Below, piece by piece: positions 11,474 to 64,000 of a stretch of DNA of 64,000 nt. Origin of the DNA: Escherichia coli. Its GTDB lineage: Bacteria; Pseudomonadota; Gammaproteobacteria; Enterobacterales; Enterobacteriaceae. Each line of letters begins with the position of its first letter. Positions within the stretch are counted from its first letter, which is position 1. The stretch is taken from assembly GCF_002854065.1 (NCBI RefSeq), contig NZ_CP024147.1, one strand, 5' to 3'. A program made the position numbers and the translations under genes. Below the pieces are notes generated by a model. The model did no database searches. It was given only the letters and a program-made list of their open reading frames with translations, and had not been told where the DNA came from.

Positions 11474-11517
11474 AACAGGTGCTGCACACAACCAGACGCG
11501 GCACCTGTTTTATTACC
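11474..11517. terminator. hairpin plus T-run between convergent yhgN and the DprA-like gene (likely bidirectional terminator)
   Basis: Arms aaacaggtgc (11474-11483) and gcacctgttt (11501-11510), followed by ttttatt. Confidence 0.5.
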
Positions 11518-48557: not shown

Positions 48558-49607
48558 ATGGAAACCCCTCAACCCGATAAAACGGGCATGCACATTCTGC
48601 TCAAGCTGGCCTCGCTGGTAGTGATCCTGGCGGGCATTCACGCAGCGGCAGATATCATTGTGCAGCTGTTACTGGCGCTGTTTTTTGCCATCGTCCTCAA
48701 CCCGCTCGTCACCTGGTTTATTCGTCGGGGAGTACAACGCCCCGTTGCCATTACGATTGTAGTGGTGGTGATGCTGATCGCACTAACCGCGCTGGTCGGC
48801 GTACTGGCGGCATCGTTTAACGAATTTATCTCTATGCTGCCGAAGTTTAATAAGGAGCTGACGCGCAAACTTTTTAAATTGCAGGAGATGTTGCCTTTTC
48901 TTAATTTGCATATGTCGCCGGAGCGAATGCTGCAGCGGATGGACTCGGAAAAAGTGGTTACCTTCACCACGGCGCTAATGACCGGGCTTTCCGGGGCAAT
49001 GGCGAGCGTGCTTTTGCTGGTGATGACCGTAGTTTTTATGCTGTTTGAAGTGCGCCACGTCCCTTACAAAATGCGTTTTGCGCTGAATAACCCACAGATT
49101 CACATCGCAGGATTACACCGCGCACTTAAAGGCGTTTCGCATTATCTGGCGTTAAAGACGCTACTCAGTTTATGGACAGGTGTCATCGTCTGGCTGGGGC
49201 TGGAGCTGATGGGGGTGCAGTTTGCGCTGATGTGGGCAGTACTGGCGTTTTTGCTTAACTACGTGCCCAATATCGGCGCGGTAATTTCCGCCGTACCGCC
49301 AATGATTCAGGTGCTGCTGTTTAATGGTATTTACGAATGTATTCTGGTCGGCGCATTGTTTTTAGTTGTCCATATGGTCATCGGCAATATTTTAGAGCCA
49401 CGGATGATGGGCCATCGCCTGGGGATGTCCACCATGGTGGTATTTCTTTCATTGTTAATTTGGGGATGGCTGCTCGGCCCGGTAGGGATGCTACTTTCGG
49501 TGCCATTAACCAGCGTGTGTAAAATCTGGATGGAAACGACGAAAGGCGGTAGCAAACTGGCGATTTTACTGGGGCCGGGCAGACCGAAAAGTCGGTTACC
49601 GGGTTAA
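48558..49607 (+). CDS. yhhT: AI-2E/PerM-family transporter
   Basis: ORF 48477..49607; ATG at 48558 (RBS aagga) gives METPQPDKTGMHILLKLASLVV. Confidence 0.9.
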   Translation: METPQPDKTGMHILLKLASLVVILAGIHAAADIIVQLLLALFFAIVLNPLVTWFIRRGVQRPVAITIVVVVMLIALTALVGVLAASFNEFISMLPKFNKELTRKLFKLQEMLPFLNLHMSPERMLQRMDSEKVVTFTTALMTGLSGAMASVLLLVMTVVFMLFEVRHVPYKMRFALNNPQIHIAGLHRALKGVSHYLALKTLLSLWTGVIVWLGLELMGVQFALMWAVLAFLLNYVPNIGAVISAVPPMIQVLLFNGIYECILVGALFLVVHMVIGNILEPRMMGHRLGMSTMVVFLSLLIWGWLLGPVGMLLSVPLTSVCKIWMETTKGGSKLAILLGPGRPKSRLPG

Positions 49608-49626
49608 TAGCACCTCCTGAGCAGGC

Positions 49627-49657
49627 AATGGCCACCGTTTATCTAACAGTGGCCATT
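49627..49657 (+). terminator. yhhT terminator hairpin
   Basis: Arms aatggccac (49627-49635) and gtggccatt (49649-49657), followed by tgatttg. Confidence 0.45.
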
Positions 49658-49659
49658 TG

Positions 49660-49986
49660 ATTTGAGGAAATGATGAAACATTATTCAGAAAATTAATTTA
49701 AAAAAACCATTCCTTAAGTCAAATATATATAAACGCCGAATAGCGATTAAATCCTTCTCAAAGAATGCACTGATAACATTGTGTTATTTTTATTGCCTCA
49801 TTTTTCTCACTCACTTATAGTTGGTCCCTGCTGGCAGTAATTTAGTCATTTCAGAGATTTTTACTCTGATGTGCACTTACTGACTTATCTCACAAGTAAT
49901 TTTTTCTCTAAATAAAGAATAGTGATGCCAGCAATTACAGTTAAATCTTGCTTTACTCGTAAAAACAATACTTTAATGGGGTTCTA
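49660..49986. other. AT-rich junction between core (yhhT) and accessory cluster; probable island boundary and cluster promoter
   Basis: Visibly AT-rich (long A/T runs), no ORFs in any frame, immediately precedes the first cluster gene. Confidence 0.6.
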
Positions 49987-50376
49987 ATGAGACATTACAT
50001 GAAGTGGTTTGCGGCTATTGCTGTTGTGGGTGCTTTAGCAGGTTGCGCGCGTACTGCGCCAATTGATCAGGTTCACTCAACCGTCAGCGCTGGTCATACC
50101 CAGGAACAAGTGAAAAAAGCGATTCTGAAAGCTGGCGTTGAACGCAAATGGATTATGTCCGAAGCCGGACAAGGCATAATTAAAGCACGTCAACAGTCAC
50201 GCGATCATTCAGCGGAAATACGCATTAACTACACGGCATCCAGCTACGATATCAATTATGAAAATAGCCAGAACCTACAAGCGTCAGGCGGACAAATTCA
50301 TAAAAACTACAATCGCTGGGTCCGCAATCTCGACAAAGATATTCAACTGAATTTGTCAGCGGGCGCAGATTTATAA
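49987..50376 (+). CDS. small lipoprotein, first gene of the APE-type cluster
   Basis: 129-aa ORF MRHYMKWFAAIAVVGALAGC (signal peptide plus lipobox); alternative start 49999; lower GC than downstream genes. Confidence 0.7.
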   Translation: MRHYMKWFAAIAVVGALAGCARTAPIDQVHSTVSAGHTQEQVKKAILKAGVERKWIMSEAGQGIIKARQQSRDHSAEIRINYTASSYDINYENSQNLQASGGQIHKNYNRWVRNLDKDIQLNLSAGADL

Positions 50377-50435
50377 TTCTTCCTAAAGTCGGGCCGTTGC
50401 GGTCCGATAATAATTTAATTCCCTCTTAACAGGTT

Positions 50436-51503
50436 GTGCCCAACATGTACGAACAGGATTCTCTTAGCGCACTGGATGCGATTACCGAAGCTCAACGCAT
50501 TGCCTTTGCCCCTATGCTTTTTCAAACAGCACTCTGCCTACGTAATGCGGGTGTACTTTCATATCTGGATCGGCAAGGCAAACATGGCGCAACGCTGGCT
50601 GATATCACCGAACATAGCCATATCAACGAATATGCTGCCAGCGTTCTGTTAGATATGGGCTTAAGCGGGCGAATTATTACCTGTAAAGAGGGAATTTATT
50701 ACCTGGCGAAAATCGGTCATTACCTCCTGCATGACACTATGACTCGCGTGAATATGGATTTCACCCAGGATGTCTGTTACCAGGGGCTCTTCTTCCTCGC
50801 CGATTCACTCAATGAAGGAAAACCTTCCGGGTTAAAAGTATTTGGCGACTGGTCGACGATATATCCGGCACTTTCGCAATTACCAGACGCCGCTCGTGAA
50901 AGCTGGTTTGCGTTTGATCATTACTATTCAGATGGCGCATTTAACGCCGTACTGCCTTATGTATTCGCCAACAACCCCACAACATTGTACGATGTAGGCG
51001 GCAATACGGGTAAGTGGGCTTTGCGTTGCTGCAAATACAATGAAAACATCGCCGTGACGTTATTAGATCTGCCACAACAAATCGTACTAGCGAAAGAAAA
51101 TATCGCGAATGCAGGTTTTTCTGATCGCATAGATTTCCATGCGGTGGATATGCTAAGCGATGCCCCATTACCGGGCGAGGCTGATATCTGGTGGATGAGC
51201 CAATTTTTAGACTGTTTTTCACCCGAACAAATAATTAGCATACTCAGCAAAATTGCCAGCGTAATGAAGCCTGGCGCAAAAGTTTGCATCATGGAGTTGT
51301 TCTGGGATGCGCAGCGGTTTGAAGCAGCATCGTTTAGCCTGAACGCGTCCTCACTTTATTTTACCTGCATGGCAAACGGTAACAGCCGTTTCTATAGTGC
51401 AGAGAAATTTTACGACTATCTGAATAAAGCAGGATTCCAGGTAGCAGAGCGCCACGATAATTTAGGCGTTGGGCATACACTTTTGATATGCCAAAAGAAA
51501 TAA
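50436..51503 (+). CDS. apeB: SAM-dependent (O-)methyltransferase
   Basis: 355-aa ORF; Rossmann SAM motif LYDVGGNTGKWAL. Symbol inferred from conserved ape cluster order; verify. Confidence 0.7.
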   Translation: MPNMYEQDSLSALDAITEAQRIAFAPMLFQTALCLRNAGVLSYLDRQGKHGATLADITEHSHINEYAASVLLDMGLSGRIITCKEGIYYLAKIGHYLLHDTMTRVNMDFTQDVCYQGLFFLADSLNEGKPSGLKVFGDWSTIYPALSQLPDAARESWFAFDHYYSDGAFNAVLPYVFANNPTTLYDVGGNTGKWALRCCKYNENIAVTLLDLPQQIVLAKENIANAGFSDRIDFHAVDMLSDAPLPGEADIWWMSQFLDCFSPEQIISILSKIASVMKPGAKVCIMELFWDAQRFEAASFSLNASSLYFTCMANGNSRFYSAEKFYDYLNKAGFQVAERHDNLGVGHTLLICQKK

Positions 51504-51543
51504 TCGTCACTTAATAATTTTGGTTTACCGCGGGCGCGCGTTG

Positions 51544-52266
51544 ATGAAATTTACATTAAATATTACCGACTGGCAGGCACTGGCGCCTGGACTTAGCGAA
51601 GCGCAGCAATGGCAAGCATGGTCGCGCCAGCCGTGGGCGATTGACCCTGCCGCGCCGTTGGCAAAATTAAGTGAACTGCCAATGATGACCGCCCGCCGCC
51701 TCAGTTCAGGCAGCAAACTGGCTGTTGAATGCGGTCTGGCAATGCTACGCCGCCATCAGCCAGACGCCGTTTTGTATACCAGTCGTCATGGCGAACTGGA
51801 GCGCAATTACCGCATTGTTCATGCACTGGCAACCGAACAGGCGCTTTCTCCGACGGACTTCGCGCTCTCCGTACACAACTCTTCCGTGGGTAACCTGACC
51901 ATTGCGGCCAAACAGCCGATCGTTTCGTCATCGCTTTCGGCTGGTCGCGACACTTTCCAGCAAGGTTTGTGTGAAGTGCTTAGTCTGTTACAGGCGGGCT
52001 ACCAGCGCGTGTTGATGGTCGATTTTGATGGCTTTCTGCCTGAGTTCTATCATCCACAACTGCCCGCAGAAATGCCGACCTGGCCGTACGCCGTCGCGCT
52101 GGTGATTGAAGCTGGCGATGAGTGGCAATGTGGAACGCAGTCAGCCATTGCGGGTAATGAAACAACACTGCCGCAAAGCATGTTGTTTTTACAGCACTAT
52201 TTACAAAATGCGGACACATTTTCACTGCCTGGCGAGCGCGTACAGTGGCGCTGGAGCCGTGGATGA
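51544..52266 (+). CDS. apeC: short KS-like partner protein (chain-length-factor-like)
   Basis: ORF 51520..52266 (TTG); ATG at 51544 gives MKFTLNITDWQALAPG; about 240 aa, far shorter than a full KAS; ATGA overlap with the next gene. Confidence 0.6.
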   Translation: MKFTLNITDWQALAPGLSEAQQWQAWSRQPWAIDPAAPLAKLSELPMMTARRLSSGSKLAVECGLAMLRRHQPDAVLYTSRHGELERNYRIVHALATEQALSPTDFALSVHNSSVGNLTIAAKQPIVSSSLSAGRDTFQQGLCEVLSLLQAGYQRVLMVDFDGFLPEFYHPQLPAEMPTWPYAVALVIEAGDEWQCGTQSAIAGNETTLPQSMLFLQHYLQNADTFSLPGERVQWRWSRG

Positions 52267-53084
52267 GTAAGCTGCTGTCACGTCTGGAGTGGACCTGGCG
52301 ACTGGTCATGACCGGGTTATGTTTTGCCCTGTTTGGTCTCGGCGGCCTGCTGCTTTCTGTCGTGTGGTTTAACATATTGTTAGTTTTGGTGTGGGATACT
52401 TCCCGCCGCCGTCGTTTGGCGCGTCGCAGCATTGCCGCCAGTTTTCGCCTGTTTTTAACTGTCGCGAAAGGGCTTGGCGTGCTGGATTATCGTATTGATG
52501 GCGCTGAAATTTTACGTCAGGAACGCGGTTGCCTCGTCGTAGCCAATCATCCCACGCTGATCGATTACGTGCTGCTGGCGTCAGTCATGCCAGAAACTGA
52601 CTGCCTGGTGAAAAGCGCGCTGTTAAAAAATCCTTTTCTTGGCGGCGTCGTGCGGGCGGCAGATTATTTAATCAACAGCGAAGCTGAAACCCTGTTACCC
52701 CGCTGCCAACAGCGACTGGCACAGGGTGACACTATCCTGATTTTCCCCGAAGGCACGCGAACGAAGCCCGGTGAAAAAATGACGCTGCAGCGCGGGGCGG
52801 CGAATATTGCCGTGCGCTGTGCCAGCGATTTACGCATCGTGACGATCGGCTGTAGCGAGCATCTGCTGGATAAACAAAGTAAATGGTATGACGTTCCACC
52901 TGACCGGCCGTTTTTTACGGTTGCAGTCCATGGTCGGGTTGAAATCAATAAATTTTACGATGCAACTTCACAAGAACCGGCGCTGGCAGCAAGGCAGTTA
53001 AACCGGCATCTTTTGCTTCAATTACAACAAGGTTGTTTACCTCTCTCAGGAATAAATAATGCAAGCGCTTTATCTGGAAATTAA
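52263..53084 (+). CDS. lysophospholipid/glycerol-3-phosphate acyltransferase family protein
   Basis: ORF 52245..53084; HX4D motif NHPTLIDY and FPEGTRT motif; start chosen at the ATGA overlap (52263). Confidence 0.75.
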   Translation: MSKLLSRLEWTWRLVMTGLCFALFGLGGLLLSVVWFNILLVLVWDTSRRRRLARRSIAASFRLFLTVAKGLGVLDYRIDGAEILRQERGCLVVANHPTLIDYVLLASVMPETDCLVKSALLKNPFLGGVVRAADYLINSEAETLLPRCQQRLAQGDTILIFPEGTRTKPGEKMTLQRGAANIAVRCASDLRIVTIGCSEHLLDKQSKWYDVPPDRPFFTVAVHGRVEINKFYDATSQEPALAARQLNRHLLLQLQQGCLPLSGINNASALSGN

Positions 53085-53316
53085 AAACCTCATCATCAGC
53101 ACCCTCAATCTGGACGAGTTGACGCCTGATGATATCGATACCGACGCGCCGCTGTTTGGCGACGGTTTAGGGCTGGACTCTATCGATGCCCTGGAACTGG
53201 GACTGGCAGTAAAAAATGAGTACGGCATCGTGCTCTCTGCGGAAAGCGAAGAGATGCGTCAGCACTTTTTCTCCGTCGCCACTCTGGCCTCTTTCATTGC
53301 TGCGCAACGTGCCTGA
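53059..53316 (+). CDS. apeE: acyl carrier protein
   Basis: 85-aa acidic ORF with phosphopantetheine-site motif LGLDSIDALEL. Confidence 0.8.
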   Translation: MQALYLEIKNLIISTLNLDELTPDDIDTDAPLFGDGLGLDSIDALELGLAVKNEYGIVLSAESEEMRQHFFSVATLASFIAAQRA

Positions 53317-53327
53317 GGAAAGCCATC

Positions 53328-53579
53328 ATGACAGAACAACAAACCGTCTATCAGGAAGTCTCAGCCCTGCTGGTTAAGCTGTTTGAAATCGATCCGCAGG
53401 ACATCAAACCTGAAGCGCGCCTGTACGAAGATCTGGAACTGGACAGCATCGACGCCGTTGACATGATTGTGCACCTGCAAAAGAAAACCGGTAAGAAAAT
53501 CAAGCCGGAAGAGTTTAAAGCAGTGCGTACAGTCCAGGATGTCGTCGAGGCTGTAGAACGCCTGCTACAAGAAGCCTGA
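53328..53579 (+). CDS. apeF: acyl carrier protein
   Basis: 83-aa ORF with LELDSIDAVDM motif. Confidence 0.8.
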   Translation: MTEQQTVYQEVSALLVKLFEIDPQDIKPEARLYEDLELDSIDAVDMIVHLQKKTGKKIKPEEFKAVRTVQDVVEAVERLLQEA

Positions 53580-53583
53580 TCTG

Positions 53584-54165
53584 ATGTCGGGCATTCGCTC
53601 GCTACCGATGATTAAGCTGCTGACTGGATTATTGCTGCTCGCCTGGCCGTTTGTGATTTGGTTTGGCTTAGCGCATAACGGCCTGCACTGGCTGTTGCCG
53701 CTAATAGCGTTGCTGCTTTTGTTGCGCCTGCGCCAGACCCGTCGCCAGGCGGGGCCGCTCCAGGTCGTCACACAAATCGTCGCTGTCGTGGGCATCGCAT
53801 TATGTGTCGCCAGCGTTCTGTTGAAAACACACCAGCTACTGCTGTTTTACCCGGTAGTGGTTAACGCGGTCATGCTGGCGGTTTTTGGCGGTTCGCTGTG
53901 GTCGGCAATGCCGATAGTTGAGCGGCTGGCGCGTTTGCAGGAGCCAGATCTGCCGGAAAAGGGCATGCGCTATACCCGCCGCGTCACGCAAATCTGGTGC
54001 GGCTTTTTCATCATCAACGGTGGAATTGCCCTCTTTACCGCGCTTTATGCCGATATGTCGTTATGGACCGCCTGGAACGGCATGATTGCTTATTTGTTGA
54101 TGGGAACATTAATGGCTGGTGAATGGCTGGTGCGCCGTCAGGTGATGAAAAGAGATCGCGCATGA
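53584..54165 (+). CDS. integral membrane protein of unknown function
   Basis: 193-aa ORF with several hydrophobic segments (LLLAWPFVIWFGL, VVGIALCVASVLL, ...). Confidence 0.65.
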   Translation: MSGIRSLPMIKLLTGLLLLAWPFVIWFGLAHNGLHWLLPLIALLLLLRLRQTRRQAGPLQVVTQIVAVVGIALCVASVLLKTHQLLLFYPVVVNAVMLAVFGGSLWSAMPIVERLARLQEPDLPEKGMRYTRRVTQIWCGFFIINGGIALFTALYADMSLWTAWNGMIAYLLMGTLMAGEWLVRRQVMKRDRA

Positions 54166-55523
54166 AGCAGACCTTACCGCTTGCACGCTGGCTGACTGCG
54201 CCACGCTCTGATGACACACCCATTGCGTGGCTGGACGAAAGCTTCTGGACGCTGGGCGATTTGCGTCACGATGTCGCGCAACTTATCTGCCGCTTGCAGC
54301 AACAGCCGGGTGAACGCTGGGCGCTGTGCTTTGAGAACAGCTATCTGTTTATCGTTGCCCTGCTCGCCACGCTACACGCCGGAAAAACGCCGGTGCTTCC
54401 GGGGCATAACCGTGTTATCCAGCTTAACGAGCAACGTGAACTTTTTGATGGTGTGCTTAGCGACAGCGAACTTAACTGGCAAGGTTCATTGCTGTTGGTA
54501 GCAAGTTCCCCACAAATCGCGACACAATCCTTCACCTTTGCCGCTATAGCGCCAGAGGCTTTTATCGAGCTGTTTACCTCCGGTTCCACGGGACAGCCGA
54601 AACGGGTGATTAAACCTGTTCATTTGCTGGATCGTGAAGCAGAACTGCTGGCTGAACGATTAGGCGCACGTCTGGCGGGTTGTCGTGTCGTCGGTTCCGT
54701 ATTGCCGCAGCATTTGTACGGCCTGACTTTTCGCGTTTTCCTGCCCATGGCGTTGGGATTACCGCTGCACGCCGCCATGCTCTGGTATGTCGAACAGTTT
54801 GCCGCGTTGAGTCATCAGCATCGCTATATCTTCATCAGCAGCCCGGCATTTTTGAAGCGCCTGGATACCCAGCTTTCTCCGCCACCCGTTCAGGTGCTTC
54901 TCTCTGCTGGCGGTGAGCTGCCGTGGCAGGATGTACAACACACCGCAAGCTGGCTGCGCGTCTGGCCTGATGAAATCTACGGCAGCACGGAAACCGGTGT
55001 CATCGCCTGGCGTTACCGCGAACAAGAGCAACGCCGCTGGCTACCCTTCCCTGGTATGCAGTTCCAGGCCGAAGGTGATTCTTTTCGTCTCTTTTCACCG
55101 CTGATGGCGGAAGATAACGGCCTGTTACTCGACGATCTCTTGCAGTTTAGCCAGGACGGTCAGTTCCATCTGATGGGGCGTCGTGGGCGCATCGTTAAGA
55201 TTGAAGAAAAACGTATTTCACTCCAGGAAGTAGAACAACGTCTGCTGGCGCTGGACGGTATTCGCGAGGCGGCGGCAGTTCCCGTTACGCGCGGCGGGCG
55301 TCAGAGCATAGGCGTTTTGCTGGTGCTGGATGACGAAGCTCATCTGCAATGGCAGAACGGCGGCGGGCATAGCCAGGAAATGACCTGGCGGCGTTTACTG
55401 CGCCCGACGCTGGAGCCAGTTGCTATTCCGCGTTACTGGCGCGTTATTGATGAAATGCCAGTAAACAGTATGAACAAGCGTGTCTATGCGCAATTACAGG
55501 AGTTATTTCATGAAGCCCCATGA
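54162..55523 (+). CDS. apeH: AMP-dependent synthetase/ligase (acyl/aryl-activating enzyme)
   Basis: ORF 54123..55523; start at the ATGA overlap 54162 (MKQTLPLARW); AMP-binding motif TSGSTGQPKRV. Confidence 0.78.
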   Translation: MKQTLPLARWLTAPRSDDTPIAWLDESFWTLGDLRHDVAQLICRLQQQPGERWALCFENSYLFIVALLATLHAGKTPVLPGHNRVIQLNEQRELFDGVLSDSELNWQGSLLLVASSPQIATQSFTFAAIAPEAFIELFTSGSTGQPKRVIKPVHLLDREAELLAERLGARLAGCRVVGSVLPQHLYGLTFRVFLPMALGLPLHAAMLWYVEQFAALSHQHRYIFISSPAFLKRLDTQLSPPPVQVLLSAGGELPWQDVQHTASWLRVWPDEIYGSTETGVIAWRYREQEQRRWLPFPGMQFQAEGDSFRLFSPLMAEDNGLLLDDLLQFSQDGQFHLMGRRGRIVKIEEKRISLQEVEQRLLALDGIREAAAVPVTRGGRQSIGVLLVLDDEAHLQWQNGGGHSQEMTWRRLLRPTLEPVAIPRYWRVIDEMPVNSMNKRVYAQLQELFHEAP

Positions 55524-55863
55524 AATCGAGCGCCATCAGGCACAAACGAATCACCTTGAAATTGTTCTGCATCTCAGGGCGGATCTGTTCTGGTTTCGCG
55601 GTCATTTTGCCGTGCAACCATTACTCCCAGGAGTTGCGCAAATCGACTGGGCGATGAGCTACGCGCTCAATCTGCTCGCGCCTGGCTGGCGTTTTCACTC
55701 CATTCAGAACATAAAATTCCAGTCTCCGTTGCTGCCGGAAAACCGCGTCACGCTCGCGCTTAACTGGCAGGAAGAACGCCAGATTCTGAGCTTTAGCTAT
55801 CAGCGTCACGACGGTGACGCCCGCCACACCGCCAGTAGCGGGAAGATCCGCCTATGTCGGTAA
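55510..55863 (+). CDS. apeI: hotdog-fold (3R)-hydroxyacyl-ACP dehydratase-like protein
   Basis: ORF 55480..55863; FabA/FabZ-like motif GHFAVQPLLPGV; start 55510 overlaps the upstream gene. Confidence 0.7.
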   Translation: MKPHEIERHQAQTNHLEIVLHLRADLFWFRGHFAVQPLLPGVAQIDWAMSYALNLLAPGWRFHSIQNIKFQSPLLPENRVTLALNWQEERQILSFSYQRHDGDARHTASSGKIRLCR

Positions 55864-57530
55864 ACTTTTCTCCCTGCGTGTTGATTCCCTGCTATAACCA
55901 CGGCGCGATGATGCCGGGCGTGCTGGCGCGTCTTAAGCCATTTAATCTCCCCTGTATTGTGGTGGACGACGGCAGCGATGCCGCCACGCAACAGCAACTG
56001 GATAATCTGGTTAGCGAACAGCCTGGCGTGACCTTAATTCGCTTAGCAGAAAACGCAGGTAAAGGCGCGGCAGTGATGCGTGGCTTACAGGCAGCGGCAG
56101 ACGCAGGGTTCAGCCATGCGGTGCAGGTGGATGCTGACGGTCAACATGCGATTGAAGATATCCCCAAACTGCTGGCACTCGCTGAACGACACCCTGCGGC
56201 GCTGATCTCCGGCCAGCCAATTTACGATGACTCCATCCCCCGCTCACGGCTTTACGGGCGCTGGGTCACCCACGTCTGGGTATGGATCGAAACGCTCTCC
56301 CTGCAACTGAAAGACAGCATGTGCGGCTTTCGCGTTTATCCGGTTGCGCCAACGCTGCAACTGGCAAAACACGCCACCATCGGCAAGCGGATGGATTTCG
56401 ACACTGAAGTGATGGTGCGCCTCTACTGGCAGGGAAACACCAGCTATTTCGTGCCGACCCGCGTCACCTATCCACTGGACGGGCTTTCGCATTTTGATGC
56501 CCTGAAAGATAACGTCCGCATCTCGCTCATGCACACGCGTCTGTTTTTCGGCATGTTACCGCGTATTCCTTCACTGCTGATGCGCCGCTCTTCCAGCCAC
56601 TGGGCGCGGCAGAGTGAAGTGAAAGGATTATGGGGAATGCGCCTGATGCTGCTGGTCTGGCGTCTGCTGGGAAGAACGGCGTTTAGCGCGCTGCTTTACC
56701 CGGTGGTGGGCGTCTACTGGCTCACTGCTTCTCGTGCGCGCAAAGCGTCGCAAGACTGGCTCGCCCGTGTACGACAGCATCAACCACAGGCGGCAAAACT
56801 CAACAGCTATCAGCACTTTCTACGTTTCGGTAATGCCATGCTCGACAAAATCGCCAGTTGGCGCGGCGAGCTGCAACTGGGGCGCGATGTGCTGTTTGCG
56901 CCAGGCGCAGAAGCGGCACTTAACGTCAGCGATCCGCGCGGCAAATTGCTGCTGGCCTCGCATCTTGGCGATGTGGAAGTGTGCCGGGCGCTGGCAAAAA
57001 TTCAGGGCTACAAAACCATTAACGCGCTGGTGTTTAGCGAAAACGCCCAACGCTTTAAACAGATAATGCAGGAGATGGCCCCGCAGGCCGGCATCAACCT
57101 GATGCCGGTAACGGATATCGGCCCGGAAACCGCCATCCTGCTCAAAGAGAAGCTGGATAACGGCGAATGGGTGGCGATTGTCGGTGACCGCATCGCCGTC
57201 AACCCGCAACGCGGCGGCGACTGGCGCGTCTGCTGGAGTCCGTTTATGGGCCAGCCTGCGCCCTTCCCACAGGGGCCGTTTATTCTCGCGTCTATTTTGC
57301 GCTGCCCGGTGAATCTGATTTTCGCCCTGCGCCAGCACGGCAAGCTGCATATTCACTGCGAAACCTTTGCCGACCCGCTGCTGTTGCCGCGTGGCGAACG
57401 CCAACAGGCGCTGCAAAACGCTATCGACCACTACGCCGCGCGTCTGGAACATTACGCGCTCCAGTCGCCCCTCGACTGGTTTAATTTTTTCGATTTCTGG
57501 CAACTGCCGGAAATTCAGGACAAGGAGTAA
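55854..57530 (+). CDS. bifunctional GT2 glycosyltransferase / lipid-A-type acyltransferase-like protein
   Basis: 558 aa; N-terminus CVLIPCYNHG...VVDDGSDA...DADGQH (GT-A DxD); C-terminal half resembles HtrB/LpxL-type acyltransferases. Confidence 0.7.
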   Translation: MSVNFSPCVLIPCYNHGAMMPGVLARLKPFNLPCIVVDDGSDAATQQQLDNLVSEQPGVTLIRLAENAGKGAAVMRGLQAAADAGFSHAVQVDADGQHAIEDIPKLLALAERHPAALISGQPIYDDSIPRSRLYGRWVTHVWVWIETLSLQLKDSMCGFRVYPVAPTLQLAKHATIGKRMDFDTEVMVRLYWQGNTSYFVPTRVTYPLDGLSHFDALKDNVRISLMHTRLFFGMLPRIPSLLMRRSSSHWARQSEVKGLWGMRLMLLVWRLLGRTAFSALLYPVVGVYWLTASRARKASQDWLARVRQHQPQAAKLNSYQHFLRFGNAMLDKIASWRGELQLGRDVLFAPGAEAALNVSDPRGKLLLASHLGDVEVCRALAKIQGYKTINALVFSENAQRFKQIMQEMAPQAGINLMPVTDIGPETAILLKEKLDNGEWVAIVGDRIAVNPQRGGDWRVCWSPFMGQPAPFPQGPFILASILRCPVNLIFALRQHGKLHIHCETFADPLLLPRGERQQALQNAIDHYAARLEHYALQSPLDWFNFFDFWQLPEIQDKE

Positions 57531-57533
57531 AGG

Positions 57534-57956
57534 GTGCTTAACGATCCCCGATTTACCGCTGAAGTCGAGCTGACCATTCCCTTTCACGACGTCGATATGA
57601 TGGGCGTGGCCTGGCACGGTAACTATTTTCGCTACTTTGAAGTGGCCCGCGAGGCGCTGCTCAACCAGTTCAATTACGGCTATCGGCAGATGAAAGAGTC
57701 CGGTTATTTGTGGCCAGTGGTCGATGCGCGGGTGAAATATCGCCACGCCCTCACCTTTGAGCAACGCATCCGCGTGCGTGCGCATATCGAAGAGTTCGAA
57801 AACCGTCTGCGGATTGGCTATCAGATTTTCGATGCCGAAACGGGCAAACGCGCCACCACCGGATACACCATTCAGGTCGCGGTCGACGAGCAAAGTCGCG
57901 AACTGTGCTTTGTCAGCCCCGATATTCTGTTTGAACGCATGGGAGTCAAACCATGA
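57534..57956 (+). CDS. apeK: 4HBT/YbgC-type acyl thioesterase
   Basis: 140-aa ORF (GTG start); hotdog thioesterase pattern HDVDMMGVAWHGNYFRYFEVAR. Confidence 0.75.
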   Translation: MLNDPRFTAEVELTIPFHDVDMMGVAWHGNYFRYFEVAREALLNQFNYGYRQMKESGYLWPVVDARVKYRHALTFEQRIRVRAHIEEFENRLRIGYQIFDAETGKRATTGYTIQVAVDEQSRELCFVSPDILFERMGVKP

Positions 57957-58558
57957 AATTTTTACCGCTACTGGCGCTGCTGATTAGCCCGTTTGTGAGC
58001 GCCCTGACCCTGGACGATCTTCAGCAACGCTTTACCGAACAATCGGTGATCCGCGCCCATTTCGATCAAACCCGGACGATTAAAGATCTGCCGCAGCCGC
58101 TGCGATCTCAGGGCCAGATGTTGATCGCCCGCGACCAGGGGCTGTTGTGGGATCAAACCTCACCGTTCCCCATGCAACTATTACTGGACGATAAACGCAT
58201 GGTGCAGGTGATCAACGGTCAGCCGCCGCAAATCATCACGGCAGAAAACAACCCGCAGATGTTTCAGTTTAACCACCTGCTGCGCGCGCTGTTCCAGGCC
58301 GATCGCAAAGTGCTGGAACAAAACTTCCGCGTCGAATTTACCGACAAAGGCGAAGGCCGCTGGACGCTGCGCCTGACCCCAACCACCACGCCGCTGGATA
58401 AAATTTTCAACACCATCGATCTCGCCGGGCAAACCTATCTGGAGAGCATTCAACTTAATGATAAACAGGGCGATCGCACCGATATTGCTCTTACCCAACA
58501 TCAACTGACGCCAGCGCAACTGACCGATGACGAACGCCAACGTTTTGCCGCCCAGTAA
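57953..58558 (+). CDS. LolA-like outer-membrane lipoprotein carrier
   Basis: 201 aa, signal peptide MKFLPLLALLISPFVSA; LolA-family length and layout. Confidence 0.65.
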   Translation: MKFLPLLALLISPFVSALTLDDLQQRFTEQSVIRAHFDQTRTIKDLPQPLRSQGQMLIARDQGLLWDQTSPFPMQLLLDDKRMVQVINGQPPQIITAENNPQMFQFNHLLRALFQADRKVLEQNFRVEFTDKGEGRWTLRLTPTTTPLDKIFNTIDLAGQTYLESIQLNDKQGDRTDIALTQHQLTPAQLTDDERQRFAAQ

Positions 58559-60845
58559 ACGCCCCGCGCTGTTATGGGGGCTAGTCTGCCTGGTCATGGC
58601 GGCGGCGTTGCTGATCCTGCTGCCGCAATCACGGCTGAACAGTAGCGTGCTGGCTATGTTACCCAAACAGGCGATGGGCGATATTCCCCCAGCGCTGAAT
58701 GACGGCTTTATGCAGCGTCTGGACCGCCAACTGGTGTGGCTGGTCAGCCCCGGTAAAGAGGCTAATCCCAGGGTGGCTCAGGAGTGGCTGACGCTGCTGC
58801 AAAAATCCGCTGCGCTCGGCGACGTTAAAGGGCCAATGGATGCCGCCAGCCAGCAAGCGTGGGGCGCGTTTTTCTGGCAGCACCGCAACGGCCTGATTGA
58901 CCCCGACACCCGCGCCCGCCTGCAAAACGGCGGCGAAGCGCAGGCGCAGTGGATCCTCTCCCAGCTTTATTCTGCATTCTCCGGGGTAAGCGGCAAGGAG
59001 CTGCAAAACGATCCGCTGATGTTAATGCGCGGCTCGCAGCTGGCGATGGCAAAAAATGGCCAGCGTTTGCGGCTGATGGACGGCTGGCTGGTGACGCAGG
59101 ATCCCCAGGGCAACTACTGGTATCTGCTGCACGGCGAACTGGCGGGATCGTCGTTTGATATGCAGCAAACCCACCAGCTCATCACGACCCTGAATACGCT
59201 GGAAAAGGATCTGAAAACGCGTTACCCACAGGCGCAGTTGCTCTCGCGCGGCACGGTATTTTACAGCGATTACGCCAGTCAACAGGCGAAGCAGGATATC
59301 TCAACCCTGGGCGTGGCAACGCTGCTGGGGGTGATATTACTGATTGTGGCGGTGTTCCGCTCTTTGCGCCCATTGTTGCTTTGCGTGATTTCCATCGGCA
59401 TCGGCGCGCTGGCGGGAACGGTCGCCACTTTATTGATTTTCGGTGAATTACACCTGATGACGCTGGTGATGAGCATGAGCGTTATCGGCATTTCCGCTGA
59501 CTACACGCTCTATTATCTCACCGAGCGGATGGTGCACGGCAACGACGTTTCGCCGTGGCAAAGCCTGGCGAAAGTACGCAATGCCCTGCTGCTGGCGCTG
59601 CTCACCACCGTGGCGGCATATCTGATTATGATGCTCGCCCCCTTCCCCGGCATTCGCCAGATGGCGATTTTTGCCGCCGTCGGGTTGAGCGCCTCCTGTC
59701 TGACCGTCCTGTTCTGGCATCCGTGGCTGTGCCGTGGCCTGCCGGTGCGTCCGGTTCCGGCGATGGCGCTGATGCTGCGCTGGCTGGCAGCGTGGCGGCG
59801 CAATAAAAAACTGTCGCTGGGTCTGCCCGTCGCGCTGGCGCTGTTTTCGCTGGCGGGGATGTCAATGCTGCGCGTCGATGACGATATCTCGCAGTTACAG
59901 GCGCTGCCGCAGCATATTCTGGCGCAGGAGAAAGCCATTACCGCCCTGACCGGACAAAGCGTCGATCAAAAATGGTTTGTGGTTTACGGCGATTCGCCAC
60001 AGCAAACATTGCGGCGACTGGAGAAATATACCGCCTCACTTGAGTATGCGAAAAAAGAGGGGCTTATCAGCAACTACCGCACCATTCCGCTGAACTCCCT
60101 TGCGCGGCAGGAGGAAGATTTACAACTGCTGAAAACGGCGGCCCCGACAGTAACAAAAGCGCTGCAAAATGCCGGGCTGACGGCAGTGAACCCGGATCTC
60201 AACGCCATGCCAGTGAACGTTGATGAATGGCTGGCAAGCCCTGCCAGTGAAGGCTGGCGTCTGCTGTGGCTGACGCTGGAAAACGGCGAAAGCGGCGTAC
60301 TGGTGCCGGTTGAAGGGGTTAAAAGTAGCGCGTTGATGCAGGAAATCGCCACATATTACCCTTGCGGCATTGCCTGGGTTGATCGCAAAAGCACCTTTGA
60401 TGAGTTGTTCGCGCTTTACCGTTATGTCTTAACCGGCTTGTTGCTGGTGGCGCTGGCGGTGATTGCCTGCGGCGCAGTGGCCCGTCTCGGCTGGCGCAAA
60501 GGGCTTATCAGCCTTGTACCTTCGGTGCTTTCGCTGGGTTGTGGTCTGGCGGTGCTGGCGATGAGCGGGCAGGCGGTGAATCTCTTTTCGCTGCTGGCGC
60601 TGGTGCTGGTGCTTGGCATCGGCATCAACTACACGCTGTTTTTCAGTAATCCGCGCGGCACACCATTAACTTCGCTACTGGCGATCACGCTGGCAATGCT
60701 CACCACCTTGCTGACGCTGGGAATGCTGATATTCAGCGCCACCCAGGCCATCAGCAGTTTTGGCATTGTGCTGGTGAGCGGTATTTTCACCGCCTTCCTG
60801 CTTTCGCCGCTGGCGATGCCCGATAAAAAGAGAACAAAAAAATGA
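58527..60845 (+). CDS. MMPL/RND-superfamily exporter
   Basis: 772-aa ORF with two blocks of TM helices separated by large soluble domains. Confidence 0.75.
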   Translation: MTNANVLPPSKRPALLWGLVCLVMAAALLILLPQSRLNSSVLAMLPKQAMGDIPPALNDGFMQRLDRQLVWLVSPGKEANPRVAQEWLTLLQKSAALGDVKGPMDAASQQAWGAFFWQHRNGLIDPDTRARLQNGGEAQAQWILSQLYSAFSGVSGKELQNDPLMLMRGSQLAMAKNGQRLRLMDGWLVTQDPQGNYWYLLHGELAGSSFDMQQTHQLITTLNTLEKDLKTRYPQAQLLSRGTVFYSDYASQQAKQDISTLGVATLLGVILLIVAVFRSLRPLLLCVISIGIGALAGTVATLLIFGELHLMTLVMSMSVIGISADYTLYYLTERMVHGNDVSPWQSLAKVRNALLLALLTTVAAYLIMMLAPFPGIRQMAIFAAVGLSASCLTVLFWHPWLCRGLPVRPVPAMALMLRWLAAWRRNKKLSLGLPVALALFSLAGMSMLRVDDDISQLQALPQHILAQEKAITALTGQSVDQKWFVVYGDSPQQTLRRLEKYTASLEYAKKEGLISNYRTIPLNSLARQEEDLQLLKTAAPTVTKALQNAGLTAVNPDLNAMPVNVDEWLASPASEGWRLLWLTLENGESGVLVPVEGVKSSALMQEIATYYPCGIAWVDRKSTFDELFALYRYVLTGLLLVALAVIACGAVARLGWRKGLISLVPSVLSLGCGLAVLAMSGQAVNLFSLLALVLVLGIGINYTLFFSNPRGTPLTSLLAITLAMLTTLLTLGMLIFSATQAISSFGIVLVSGIFTAFLLSPLAMPDKKRTKK

Positions 60846-61426
60846 TCAAATCCACATTCTGGCGAGCGTTCGCCCTGACCGCTACGCTTATCCTCACCGG
60901 CTGTAGCCACTCGCAACCAGAACAGGAAGGCCGCCCGCAGGCGTGGCTGCAACCTGGCACGCGCATCACGCTGCCGGCACCAGGGATTTCACCCGCAGTC
61001 AATTCGCAGCAACTGTTGACCGGCAGCTTCAACGGCAAAACCCAGTCGCTGTTAGTGATGCTTAACGCCGACGATCAGAAAATCACCCTTGCCGGGCTGT
61101 CGTCGGTCGGCATTCGCCTGTTTCTGGTGACCTACGATGCGCAAGGGCTACGCGCCGAGCAATCCATCGTCGTCCCACAGTTACCGCCCGCAAGTCAGGT
61201 ACTGGCTGACGTGATGCTCAGCCACTGGCCGATTAGCGCCTGGCAACCGCAACTTCCCGCAGGATGGACACTTCGCGACAACGGTGACAAACGCGAGCTG
61301 CGTAACGCCAGCGGCAAACTGGTCACGGAAATCACCTATCTGAATCGCAAGGGCAAACGCGTGCCAATCAGCATTGAGCAGCATGTCTTTAAATACCACA
61401 TCACCATTCAATACTTAGGTGACTGA
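60842..61426 (+). CDS. lipoprotein (DUF3261-like)
   Basis: 194 aa, MIKSTFWRAFALTATLILTGC lipobox. Confidence 0.65.
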   Translation: MIKSTFWRAFALTATLILTGCSHSQPEQEGRPQAWLQPGTRITLPAPGISPAVNSQQLLTGSFNGKTQSLLVMLNADDQKITLAGLSSVGIRLFLVTYDAQGLRAEQSIVVPQLPPASQVLADVMLSHWPISAWQPQLPAGWTLRDNGDKRELRNASGKLVTEITYLNRKGKRVPISIEQHVFKYHITIQYLGD

Positions 61427-62597
61427 TATGATTTATATTTCCGCCGTCGGCATGATCAACGCCCTGGGAAATAACCTTGACGAAATCGCAACCAACCTGA
61501 CTCGCGGTGTTGCTCCCGGCATGCGCCCGCGCGCAGGCTGGTTGCAGGGGCATCCGCAGGCGGTCCTGGCTGGCGTGGATGGCGAGCTTCCGCTTATCCC
61601 GGAAAAATTCGCTGCGCACCGCTCGCGCAACAATCAGATCCTGCTGGCGGCGCTGGCGCAGATCCAGCCGCAGGTTGATGACGCTATCGCGAAATATGGT
61701 CGCGAGCGCATCGCGATTGTACTTGGCACCAGCACCTCCGGCCTGCATGAAGGCGACACGCACGTTAACCTGCGCACCCACGGGCAGCCGAGCACCACAT
61801 GGCACTACGCGCAACAGGAACTCGGCGATCCGTCGCGTTTTCTCAGCCACTGGCTGGCGCTCGACGGCCCGGCCTATACCCTTTCAACCGCCTGCTCTTC
61901 CAGCGCCAGAGCGATAATCAGCGGGCGCAGGCTTATCGAAGCGGGGCTGGTCGATGCCGCCATTGTGGGTGGCGCAGACACCCTGAGCCGGATGCCGATT
62001 AACGGTTTTCACAGCCTCGAATCGCTGTCGCCAACCTTATGTCAGCCGTTTGGTCGTGACCGCGCAGGTATCACCATTGGTGAAGGGGCGGGGCTAATGC
62101 TGCTGACCCGGGAACCGCAGCCCATCGCGTTGCTGGGCGTTGGTGAATCGAGCGACGCTTACCATATTTCGGCCCCGCATCCGCAGGGCGAAGGGGCGAT
62201 CCGCGCCATTAATCAGGCACTGACCGATGCGCAGCTTACGCCAGATGACGTCGGCTATATCAACCTGCACGGCACCGCCACGCAACTCAACGACCAGATT
62301 GAATCGATGGTGCTTAACGCCCTGTTTGGCGAACGCGTACCGTGCAGCTCCACCAAACATTTGACCGGCCACACGCTGGGCGCGGCGGGCATTACCGAAG
62401 CAGCAATCAGTATGTTGATCTTACAGCGTGATTTACCGCTGCCCGCCCAAGATTTCAGCCTGTCGCCACGCGATCCCACGCTGCCACCCTGCGGCATTAT
62501 CGAAAAACCGCAGCCGCTGGCTCGTCCGGTGATCCTGTCCAATTCCTTCGCCTTTGGCGGCAATAACGCCAGCATTCTGCTCGGGAGGGTTTCGTGA
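61419..62597 (+). CDS. apeO: beta-ketoacyl-ACP synthase (KAS I/II-like)
   Basis: 392 aa; active-site Cys TACSSS, His motifs HGTATQLND and GHTLGAAG. Confidence 0.85.
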   Translation: MTDMIYISAVGMINALGNNLDEIATNLTRGVAPGMRPRAGWLQGHPQAVLAGVDGELPLIPEKFAAHRSRNNQILLAALAQIQPQVDDAIAKYGRERIAIVLGTSTSGLHEGDTHVNLRTHGQPSTTWHYAQQELGDPSRFLSHWLALDGPAYTLSTACSSSARAIISGRRLIEAGLVDAAIVGGADTLSRMPINGFHSLESLSPTLCQPFGRDRAGITIGEGAGLMLLTREPQPIALLGVGESSDAYHISAPHPQGEGAIRAINQALTDAQLTPDDVGYINLHGTATQLNDQIESMVLNALFGERVPCSSTKHLTGHTLGAAGITEAAISMLILQRDLPLPAQDFSLSPRDPTLPPCGIIEKPQPLARPVILSNSFAFGGNNASILLGRVS

Positions 62598-63058
62598 GCC
62601 ACTATTTATCCCCCGGCGCTTATCTGCCCCACGACGCGCCCATGTTACTGCTGGAAGACGTGGTGAGCGTCAGCGATGACAGCGCGGTGTGCCGCGTGAC
62701 GGTTTCGCCCAGTGGCGTACTGGCACCGTTTCTCGACCCGGACGGCAATCTCCCCGGCTGGTTTGCCCTTGAACTGATGGCGCAAACCGTCGGCGTCTGG
62801 TCTGGCTGGCATCGCCACCAGCAGGGCAAAAACAGTATTGAGTTAGGGATGATACTGGGCGCGCGTGAATTGCTTTGCGCCGCTGGCATTCTGCCCGCAG
62901 GCCAGACGCTGACCATTACCGTCAAACTGCTGATGCAGGACGATCGCTTCGGCAGTTTTGAGTGCAGCATCAACGACGGCGAGGCGACGGGCCGCATTAA
63001 CACCTTCCAGCCGACCGCGGAAGAACTTACCACCCTGTTTCAACAAGGAGCGTCCTGA
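62594..63058 (+). CDS. apeP: hotdog-fold dehydratase
   Basis: 154-aa ORF; 4-nt overlap with KS, 1-nt overlap with KR. Confidence 0.7.
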   Translation: MSHYLSPGAYLPHDAPMLLLEDVVSVSDDSAVCRVTVSPSGVLAPFLDPDGNLPGWFALELMAQTVGVWSGWHRHQQGKNSIELGMILGARELLCAAGILPAGQTLTITVKLLMQDDRFGSFECSINDGEATGRINTFQPTAEELTTLFQQGAS

Positions 63059-63789
63059 TGAGTCGTTCAGTTCTGGTTACTGGTGCCAGCAAAGGCATTG
63101 GTCGCGCCATCGCCTGCCAACTGGCGGCAGACGGCTTTAACATTGGCGTTCACTATCACCGTGACGCCACAGGCGCTCAGGAAACGCTGAATGCCATTGT
63201 CGCCAACGGGGGTAACGGGCGTTTGCTCAGTTTCGACGTCGCAAACCGCGAACAGTGTCGGGAAGTGCTGGAGCATGAGATCGCGCAACACGGTGCCTGG
63301 TACGGCGTGGTCAGTAACGCCGGGATCGCCCGCGATGCCGCTTTTCCGGCTTTAAGCGATGACGACTGGGATGCGGTGATCCACACCAACCTCGACAGTT
63401 TCTACAACGTCATTCAGCCGTGCATTATGCCAATGATCGGCGCGCGCCAGGGTGGGCGCATCATCACGCTGTCCTCGGTTTCCGGCGTAATGGGCAATCG
63501 CGGCCAGGTGAATTACAGCGCAGCCAAAGCCGGAATTATCGGCGCAACTAAAGCGCTGGCTATCGAACTCGCGAAGCGCAAAATCACCGTCAACTGCATC
63601 GCGCCGGGGCTTATTGATACCGGGATGATCGAAATGGAAGAGAGCGCTCTGAAAGAGGCAATGTCGATGATCCCCATGAAACGTATGGGCCAGGCGGAAG
63701 AAGTTGCCGGGCTTGCCAGTTATTTAATGTCTGATATTGCGGGTTACGTCACCCGCCAGGTTATTTCCATCAACGGAGGGATGTTATGA
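63058..63789 (+). CDS. apeQ: 3-oxoacyl-ACP reductase (SDR, FabG-like)
   Basis: 243 aa; TGASKGIGRAIA NAD(P)-binding and YSAAKAG catalytic motifs. Confidence 0.88.
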   Translation: MSRSVLVTGASKGIGRAIACQLAADGFNIGVHYHRDATGAQETLNAIVANGGNGRLLSFDVANREQCREVLEHEIAQHGAWYGVVSNAGIARDAAFPALSDDDWDAVIHTNLDSFYNVIQPCIMPMIGARQGGRIITLSSVSGVMGNRGQVNYSAAKAGIIGATKALAIELAKRKITVNCIAPGLIDTGMIEMEESALKEAMSMIPMKRMGQAEEVAGLASYLMSDIAGYVTRQVISINGGML

Positions 63790-64000
63790 CACGTCGCGTA
63801 GTGATTACAGGAATGGGCGGCGTGACTGCCTTTGGTGAAAACTGGCAGGACGTTTCTGCACGCTTACTGGCGTATGAAAATGCGGTGCGCAAAATGCCGG
63901 AGTGGCAGGTCTACGATGGCCTGCACACCCTGCTTGGCGCGCCTGTTGATGATTTCACGCTACCGGAGCACTATACCCGCAAGCGTATCCGTGCGATGGG
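63786..64000 (+). CDS. apeR: beta-ketoacyl-ACP synthase (partial, N-terminal 71 codons; continues beyond window)
   Basis: ATG at 63786 (ATGA overlap with KR); MTRRVVITGMGGVTAFGENWQD (KAS N-terminus). Confidence 0.75.
   Translation, partial: MTRRVVITGMGGVTAFGENWQDVSARLLAYENAVRKMPEWQVYDGLHTLLGAPVDDFTLPEHYTRKRIRAM

Follow-up and report, generated by a model that had tools for sequence, protein, structure and literature searches.

Organization and identity of the apeL-apeM-apeN locus

The window is a 64,000-nucleotide stretch of Escherichia coli chromosomal DNA. Three tightly packed and overlapping genes on the plus strand fill positions 57953–61426, and their open reading frame coordinates match exactly those given in a preliminary description of this DNA. 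The three genes and the context genes referred to below are:

apeL, 57953..58558, + strand: 201-aa periplasmic LolA-fold carrier (predicted)
apeM, 58527..60845, + strand: 772-aa inner-membrane RND/MMPL transporter (predicted)
apeN, 60842..61426, + strand: 194-aa DUF3261 lipoprotein with a LolB-like fold (predicted)
apeK, 57534..57956, + strand: thioesterase directly 5' of apeL (Pfam 4HBT_2), context gene
apeO, 61428..62597, + strand: ketosynthase directly 3' of apeN (Pfam ketoacyl-synt; RefSeq start coordinate)
apeG, 53584..54165, + strand: 193-aa polytopic membrane protein
apeA, 49987..50376, + strand: 129-aa lipoprotein, first gene of the cluster
aryl polyene (APE) cluster apeA-apeQ, 49987..64000, + strand: delimited by Pfam scans and the RefSeq annotation of a 99.99%-identical genome

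The APE cluster is inserted in the E. coli chromosome between yhhT and acpT, and its apeR gene extends past the end of the window. Pfam scans of the genes flanking apeL-apeM-apeN identified a methyltransferase, a chain-length factor, an acyltransferase, two ACPs, an AMP-ligase, ApeI- and ApeP-type dehydratases, a GT2, a thioesterase, ketosynthases and a ketoreductase, on the basis of which the surroundings are called biosynthetic. The preliminary description had placed three consecutive genes inside a biosynthetic operon, and the Pfam scans and RefSeq annotation locate them within the APE biosynthetic gene cluster (BGC), flanked by the thioesterase gene apeK and the ketosynthase gene apeO. The genes are physically interlocked, with an ATGA overlap at the apeK/apeL junction (read from the junction sequence), a 32-nt overlap between apeL and apeM, an ATGA at the apeM/apeN junction and a spacer of 1 nt between the apeN stop codon and apeO.

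The encoded proteins have the same lengths as their counterparts in E. coli CFT073 and are 98% (ApeL/c1192), 96.8% (ApeM/c1191) and 96.9% (ApeN/c1190) identical to them. The CFT073 proteins have been published as ApeL (LolA-like), ApeM (RND) and ApeN (DUF3261, LolB-like) (Johnston 2021, PMC8253772). Judged by sequence identity, the three genes are apeL, apeM and apeN of the E. coli aryl-polyene pigment cluster. The same genes, likewise placed between apeK and apeO and given the same proposed role, occur in CFT073 (c1192-c1190) and in Xenorhabdus doucetiae. The insertion site differs, as the CFT073 cluster lies in an integrase-flanked island near dgcT whereas the present one lies between yhhT and acpT, and the apeA products of the two strains share only about 64% identity.

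Neither the genes and their names nor the hypothesis of transport is new, the same outer-membrane export role having been proposed earlier (Johnston 2021, PMC8253772; Grammbitter 2020, bioRxiv 10.1101/2020.12.19.423268). Because both the genes and the hypothesis are in the literature, the gene identity, folds, sorting signals, conserved catalytic-type residues (the TM4 Asp of ApeM among them) and synteny described here constitute corroboration and not discovery. The prior publication of the idea for these very genes had been missed by the preliminary description.

Conservation of the module

In RefSeq, 825 of the 5426 complete E. coli genomes carry an annotation of these three genes. The gene order K-L-M-N-O was kept in all 81 loci examined, which are almost all from Enterobacterales and 80 of which came from a genome scan seeded by a two-sequence ApeM alignment. 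Together, the annotation in 825 genomes and the constant order in 81 loci show that these are real conserved genes and rule out chance open reading frames. The overlap of stop and start codons is also present in orthologous loci, and the order M-N(-O) recurs around DUF3261 homologs at only 25–39% identity. The Francisella cluster retains an unbroken K-L-M-N block, though O-P-Q-R lie on the opposite strand. A homologue search with E. coli ApeL yielded, among the matches listed, near-identical E. coli proteins only, and a search with a distant ApeL returned the query itself and nothing else. No domain fusions were found among the longer DUF3261 proteins.

Predicted folds and sorting signals of ApeL, ApeM and ApeN

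ApeL matches the Pfam families LolA and LolA_3 (PF03548 and PF19574) with E-values of about 2e-11 and scores of 44.4 and 43.8 bits, above the respective gathering cutoffs of 23.6 and 23. Structure prediction was carried out on monomers, with the folding alignment of ApeL built from the orthologous loci collected, and ApeL is predicted to adopt the unclosed beta-barrel of LolA. The LolA-like assignment in the preliminary description thus stands, as does the LolA fold on which it had made its reading depend. The first 17 residues (nt 57953–58003) are predicted from the sequence to form a type I signal peptide with the cleavage motif VSA↓LTLD and no lipobox (MKFLPLLALLISPFVSA↓LTLD), and the motif is conserved in orthologs; ApeL is predicted to be secreted to the periplasm. 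We rejected the identification of ApeL as the housekeeping LolA since its score of 61.4 bits does not reach the cutoff of 112 for the LolA equivalog (NCBIfam TIGR00547). By this scoring, ApeL is a member of a paralogous LolA subfamily that is distinct from the lipoprotein chaperone proper. It also scores below the cutoff of the flexirubin LolA2 model (NCBIfam NF053544, LolA2_flexi; 56.6 bits, cutoff 125), which indicates a subfamily different from that of flexirubin LolA2. Structures of the Francisella ApeL ortholog have been deposited (PDB 8T5J, 9COZ and 9CWL), for which our literature search found no describing paper.

ApeM matches Pfam MMPL with an E-value of 3.6e-8 (33.2 bits, cutoff 20.5). 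A crude hydropathy scan, the only basis for its topology, gives 12 transmembrane (TM) segments arranged as 1+5/1+5, together with two large periplasmic domains, in the predicted order TM1, periplasmic domain 1 (about aa 33–257), TM2-6, TM7, periplasmic domain 2 (about aa 448–633) and TM8-12. In searches of the PDB, the single sequence hit the HpnN structures 5khn and 6wu0, a profile reached 6wu0 at 1.9e-12, and the only other solved match was a marginal one to the efflux pump CmeB (single sequence, E 0.008). The MMPL/RND exporter proposed in the preliminary description is therefore borne out by the Pfam match, the hydropathy pattern and HpnN as the closest solved relative. The NCBIfam matches to HAE3, HpnN and BstA were all sub-threshold, with scores under the curated cutoffs for HpnN (TIGR03480, 47.2 against 751.9 bits) and HAE3 (TIGR00921, 50.2 against 351.9 bits). 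Two residue pairs are invariant in 82 sequences, namely D325-Y326 in TM4 (nt 59499–59504) and N701-Y702 in TM10 (nt 60627–60632), and the counterpart of D325 in the alignment with the HpnN chain of 5khn is the Asp at position 344. An invariant TM4 Asp is typical of proton-driven RND pumps. Pumps of the MmpL3 type carry Asp-Tyr pairs, and the Asn, not Asp, at position 701 of ApeM suggests a proton relay unlike theirs. In the literature, ApeM has been assigned to a family of its own, APPE (Grammbitter 2020, bioRxiv 10.1101/2020.12.19.423268).

The only Pfam match of ApeN is to DUF3261 (E 2.5e-39), above the gathering score. The protein had been described as a small lipoprotein, and it does carry a lipobox, L-T-G-C at aa 18–21 (nt 60893–60904), followed by Ser at position +2 (LTGC-S), from which sorting to the outer membrane is predicted. 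The lipobox is conserved, and in the 77 orthologs in which it is recognisable, position +2 is occupied by Ser (55), Ala (15), Gly (4), Leu (2) or Arg (1) and by Asp in none. ApeN is predicted to have a LolB-type fold, a likeness that the preliminary description had missed. Membership of the LolB family was not apparent from its sequence, with no match in NCBIfam and no LolB sequence match in the PDB. The motif GLSxxGxRLF (aa 85–94) is conserved in a hairpin between two strands, and position 89 within it is usually hydrophobic, which makes it a candidate for the exposed, protruding-loop residue that serves membrane insertion in LolB-like acceptors.

Proposed route of the APE lipid to the outer membrane

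The apeL-apeM-apeN genes probably form the envelope-trafficking arm of the E. coli APE pigment-lipid pathway, operating as a Lol-like relay driven by an RND pump. We infer an export function for the three proteins and, with it, the cargo, the direction of transport, the energy source and the physical contacts among ApeL, ApeM and ApeN. In the proposed sequence of events, the finished APE lipid would be assembled at the inner membrane and pulled out of it by ApeM, acting as an HpnN-like transporter powered by the proton-motive force via Asp325. ApeM would hand the lipid to soluble ApeL, which would shield the hydrophobic chains across the periplasm, and ApeN, as an outer-membrane-anchored lipoprotein of LolB fold, would take the lipid from ApeL and insert it. 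The relay would thus use an RND pump in place of the LolCDE ABC transporter and would carry a lipid instead of a lipoprotein. The suggestion in the preliminary description that the product is a lipid-like molecule shuttled to the outer membrane is supported as a reading, the same role having been published already. Regarding the hand-off from pump to carrier, we agree with it in that no account was found in the literature searched.

The APE lipid of Xenorhabdus is a glycerol-phosphate-GalNAc glycolipid with three acyl or polyene chains (Grammbitter 2020, bioRxiv 10.1101/2020.12.19.423268), and LolA accommodates exactly three acyl chains in its cavity, touching the lipid of its cargo but making no contact with the protein portion (PMC9457489). 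The correspondence between a three-chain lipid and a three-chain cavity makes an APE cargo plausible. In E. coli, non-polar deletions of apeL and apeN were not obtained and the published mutants are polar or product-less, while deletion of apeM leads to loss of APE metabolites with no inner-membrane accumulation (PMC8253772). Such a loss is as compatible with a role in biosynthesis or feedback as it is with export. On balance, we lean slightly towards ApeL-ApeN being a true LolA/LolB-type relay for a non-protein triacyl glycolipid that is loaded by a proton-driven RND pump.

Other arrangements of the same components were considered. ApeM alone might move the lipid, spanning the periplasm as proposed for HpnN, while ApeL and ApeN serve as a scaffold, stabilise the biosynthetic or attachment machinery, or exert feedback control on synthesis. 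To our knowledge, neither a dedicated carrier nor dedicated LolA/LolB-like partners assist HpnN, the relative closest to ApeM among solved structures, and the fact that apeM deletion abolishes the metabolites rather than trapping them suggests a coupling to synthesis. However, ApeM falls about 100 aa short of the length of HpnN, and in predicted fold and sorting signal ApeL and ApeN correspond exactly to a carrier in the periplasm and an acceptor in the outer membrane. Moreover, apeL and apeN strictly adjoin apeM, with stop/start overlaps, across distant taxa, which points to a joint function, and we regard transport by ApeM alone as unlikely. The identity of the cargo can also be questioned. 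LolA and LolB canonically carry lipoproteins, and the ApeL-ApeN pair could carry one encoded in the cluster, either ApeA or ApeA with an APE lipid anchor, extracted by ApeM. The apeA product, an alternative candidate cargo, is a lipoprotein with a good lipobox (LAGC-A), and this possibility has been raised by both Johnston et al. and De Smet et al. Yet an apeA deletion retains wild-type pigmentation (PMC8253772), and the product isolated from Xenorhabdus is a free glycolipid. In 15 orthologous loci for which enough upstream sequence is available, L-M-N is kept throughout and neither a detectable ApeA homolog nor an upstream lipobox open reading frame is present, and the Francisella cluster likewise has L-M-N and lacks apeA. 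A lipoprotein cargo is, in our estimation, quite improbable. ApeA as the obligate cargo was rejected, as it is missing from many clusters; the protein gives a weak Lpp/OprI-like match in NCBIfam.

A further question concerns the energy source. ApeG (COG4648) is proposed as the energy supplier in both published models (PMC8253772; bioRxiv 10.1101/2020.12.19.423268), one of which groups it with ApeL, ApeM and ApeN as transport machinery (PMC8253772), and the module could accordingly be energised through ApeG by hydrolysis of ATP or pyrophosphate and not by the proton-motive force. This protein of 193 aa consists almost entirely of hydrophobic helices, with five to six segments filling its length, and has no Walker motif; scans against Pfam and NCBIfam gave no match and no recognisable enzymatic domain. 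ApeM, on the other hand, keeps the invariant TM4 Asp expected of a proton-driven RND pump, and hydrolysis through ApeG therefore appears highly improbable.

APE clusters have been reported as the BGC family with the widest distribution in Gram-negative bacteria, and the pigment lipids they specify confer protection from oxidative stress and influence biofilm formation (PMC8253772). Envelope biology faces the general problem of how bulky lipids traverse the periplasm, for which the Ape module would offer a compact and genetically tractable case of an RND pump feeding a LolA/LolB-like relay. If the proposed relay were demonstrated, a LolA-LolB pair would for the first time have a proven lipid cargo, and a hand-off from an RND pump to LolA would likewise be the first of its kind; as the idea has already been published as a hypothesis, experimental proof alone would be new.

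Comparison with known transport systems

The proposed relay resembles LolCDE-LolA-LolB in combining a periplasmic LolA-fold carrier with an outer-membrane LolB-fold lipoprotein as acceptor, and in that its likely cargo presents three hydrophobic chains. It differs in that the inner-membrane extractor is an RND/MMPL protein and not an ABC transporter, the cargo is presumably a glycolipid, ApeL scores far under the LolA equivalog cutoff and ApeN has no LolB sequence match. The flexirubin LolA2/LolB2 proteins of Flavobacterium johnsoniae (Fjoh_1085/1084) are likewise a pathway-specific pair in an aryl-polyene-type pigment cluster, with the putative function of moving the pigment to the outer membrane (PMC11885536). 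HpnN (PDB 5KHN, 6WU0) is also a 12-TM RND protein that directs a biosynthetic lipid toward the outer membrane, with a TM4 Asp that aligns with that of ApeM, although the similarity is weak (47 bits for ApeM against a model cutoff of 752). Like the flexirubin pair, the sterol transport system BstABC of Methylococcus capsulatus offers a precedent, with the same three-part logic within a biosynthetic operon: the inner membrane holds an MmpL/HpnN-like protein, the periplasm a binder and the outer membrane a lipoprotein (PMC10942540, PMC11713862). ApeM weakly matches BstA, whereas BstB is a substrate-binding protein of the PhnD type and BstC is TatT-like, neither having a LolA or LolB fold. Mycobacterial MmpL7 and LppX, which act in PDIM export, are only distantly related and belong to another envelope architecture, in which LppX is itself a lipoprotein.

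The apeLMN genes lie within an aryl polyene operon

The preliminary description placed genes for a LolA-like protein, a 772-aa MMPL protein and a lipoprotein at 57953-61426, inside a biosynthetic operon. The open reading frames lie exactly there with the corresponding Pfam matches, and domain scans and RefSeq annotation confirm that the flanking genes belong to aryl polyene (APE) biosynthesis.

Features of the APE operon
49987 to window end, plus strand: APE operon (Pfam scans and RefSeq annotation)
57953-58558, plus strand: apeL, 201 aa; Pfam LolA/LolA_3 above gathering score
58527-60845, plus strand: apeM, 772 aa; Pfam MMPL above gathering score
60842-61426, plus strand: apeN, 194 aa; Pfam DUF3261 above gathering score

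The operon begins with genes for a lipoprotein, an O-methyltransferase, a chain-length factor, a lysophospholipid acyltransferase and two ACPs, continues with a small membrane protein, an AMP-ligase, an ApeI-type dehydratase, a GT2/acyltransferase and a thioesterase ahead of apeL-apeM-apeN, and proceeds after apeN with a ketosynthase, an ApeP-type dehydratase and a ketoreductase. This gene content is that of the APE biosynthetic cluster, which is inserted here between yhhT and acpT. The window comes from the E. coli chromosome: over 49.7 kb it is 99.99% identical to strain CUWW06, and it runs from glgP to yhhT. The apeLMN stretch is present in 825 of 5426 complete E. coli genomes; the yhhT-apeA junction occurs in 569.

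Junction sequences show that the three genes are tightly packed with each other and with their neighbours: ATGA overlaps join apeK to apeL and apeM to apeN, apeL and apeM overlap by 32 nt, and the apeN stop lies 1 nt from the apeO start. The apeL/apeM overlap (58527-58558) is out of frame and lays the 3' end of apeL over the start of apeM. The conserved C-terminal helix of ApeL (LTDDERQRF) falls within it; this helix may have a docking role, inseparable here from dual-coding constraint.

Conservation of gene order

The K-L-M-N-O order is kept in 81 of 81 loci, comprising 80 from a genome scan (almost all Enterobacterales, ApeM 61-98% identical) and one distant metagenomic contig (35%). The apeL/apeM genes overlap by 26-32 nt in 78 of the 81, including the 35%-identical ortholog, and the apeM/apeN ATGA overlap occurs in 61 of 79 loci. 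DUF3261 homologs at only 25-39% identity again have an ApeM homolog upstream and an ApeO homolog downstream. In Francisella, where the apeL/apeM overlap is absent, K-L-M-N stay together despite O-P-Q-R lying on the opposite strand. One exception comes from a distant metagenomic contig, L006 (3079-5775), where an N-O-P(-Q) operon starts with the DUF3261 gene and an opposite-strand methionine synthase gene, with no apeL or apeM, lies directly upstream; the export genes can thus be separated from each other.

Predicted properties of ApeL, ApeM and ApeN

ApeL begins with a typical Sec signal peptide, MKFLPLLALLISPFVSA followed by LTLD, that is conserved in orthologs (81 loci); this argues for a periplasmic location, against the "cytoplasmic" assignment in the preprint of Grammbitter et al. 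2020 (bioRxiv 10.1101/2020.12.19.423268). PDB 8T5J, the entry that matches ApeL best, is clearly related in sequence too (E 7e-23). Across 154 compared residues, 8T5J shares 99% identity with a Francisella philomiragia protein (locus L090, 10001-10585) whose gene lies inside an APE cluster ordered C-D-E-F-G-H-I-J-J'-K-L-M-N. By this identity, the PDB already contains an ApeL ortholog as a crystal structure, deposited as "LolA". The entries 8T5J, 9COZ and 9CWL carry the deposition title 'LolA family protein' for what is in fact this ortholog; a literature search found no paper describing them. Assignment of ApeL as housekeeping LolA (61 bits, cutoff 112) or flexirubin LolA2 (57 bits, cutoff 125) was ruled out.

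In its hydropathy profile, ApeM shows two rounds of the RND arrangement, each consisting of one TM, a periplasmic domain and five further TMs. A single-sequence PDB search returned two HpnN hopanoid transporters as the only significant relatives and the multidrug pump CmeB as a marginal match; with a 23-sequence profile, HpnN was the sole relative left (E 1.9e-12). ApeM falls well short of the cutoffs of the curated models for HpnN, HAE3 and BstA and is therefore classed by sequence as a subfamily of its own. All 82 sequences compared share the TM4 motif G-I-S-A-D325-Y-T-L-Y-Y and the equivalent TM10 motif G-I-G-I-N701-Y-T-L-F-F. In alignment, D325 matches the Asp at position 344 in HpnN chain 5khn, and this favours coupling to the proton-motive force.

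ApeN has the lipobox LTGC followed by S. A recognisable lipobox is present in 77 orthologs; at +2 these have S, A, G, L or R, and none has Asp. By the +2 sorting rule, ApeN is thus predicted to reach the outer membrane through the housekeeping Lol system.

A candidate relay and its alternatives

The direct evidence for ApeL, ApeM and ApeN consists of folds, sorting signals, conserved residues and gene linkage, and the best-supported reading is a four-step relay whose functional steps we infer. The lipid would be completed at the inner membrane, pulled out by ApeM driven by the proton gradient, taken over by ApeL and ferried across the periplasm, and received by ApeN, presumably mouth-to-mouth as in LolA-LolB, for insertion into the outer membrane. 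A LolA-fold carrier plausibly fits such cargo, since the Xenorhabdus APE lipid has three hydrophobic chains (Grammbitter et al. 2020) and the LolA cavity has room for three acyl chains, contacting the lipid only (PMC9457489).

The cargo might instead be the cluster lipoprotein ApeA, but this is weakened by pigment retention in an apeA deletion (Johnston et al., PMC8253772), by the lack of ApeA in 15 loci with adequate upstream sequence and by a Francisella APE cluster without apeA. ApeM could also act alone, like HpnN, with another role for ApeL and ApeN; in line with this, apeM deletion leads to loss of the product rather than its trapping (Johnston et al.). ATP hydrolysis by ApeG (53584-54165), described as a COG4648 'pyrophosphatase' and possible supplier of transport energy (PMC8253772), was suggested as the energy source by both Johnston et al. 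and Grammbitter et al. 2020. However, ApeG is a 193-aa polytopic membrane protein consisting almost entirely of hydrophobic helices, and sequence and profile scans gave neither a nucleotide-binding motif nor a Pfam or NCBIfam match; the proposal thus appears unsupported, and ATP-energised transport unlikely.

Relation to published work and known systems

The window ApeL, ApeM and ApeN are 98%, 96.8% and 96.9% identical to the CFT073 proteins. Johnston et al. proposed "a dedicated transport system" to the outer membrane for the ape transport genes; Grammbitter et al. 2020 determined the product in Xenorhabdus to be an APE-bearing glycerol-phosphate-GalNAc lipid, adopted the same transport model and assigned ApeM to the APPE family of RND transporters. 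The earlier suggestion of a lipid-like product shuttled to the outer membrane is therefore correct but known, as is apeLMN as a proposed APE export module. A literature search found no later paper resolving the mechanism, and the present finding makes hand-off from RND pump to LolA-like carrier no more testable than published work does.

The Lol pathway shares the carrier and acceptor folds with ApeL/M/N, whereas motor and cargo differ. Flexirubin LolA2/LolB2, likewise of putative role, embody the same concept as ApeL/ApeN in a different subfamily. HpnN is the pump closest to ApeM; BstABC shares the three-part logic, but its periplasmic and outer-membrane folds are unrelated. In mycobacterial MmpL7/LppX, an MMPL pump is paired with a lipid carrier of LolA fold.

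Additional observations

The APE cluster occupies two chromosomal sites in E. coli: yhhT/acpT (window 49200-64000) and, in CFT073, an integrase-flanked island near dgcT (NC_004431.1 1143727-1158748). The two clusters are mosaic, with 96.3% nucleotide identity over apeH-apeR and 90.4% over apeB-apeG, and their ApeA proteins are only about 64% identical. E. coli ApeJ (55854-57530) fuses an N-terminal GT2 glycosyltransferase to an acyltransferase-like C-terminal half; in Francisella (L090, 7902-9571) each half has a gene of its own (249 and 307 aa). On the minus strand at 11513-14822, between yhgN and gntU, lie a DprA-like gene and a RecQ-family helicase gene that a frameshift splits into two ORFs (12715-14136 and 14070-14822); they resemble a small accessory insertion in which one gene has decayed.
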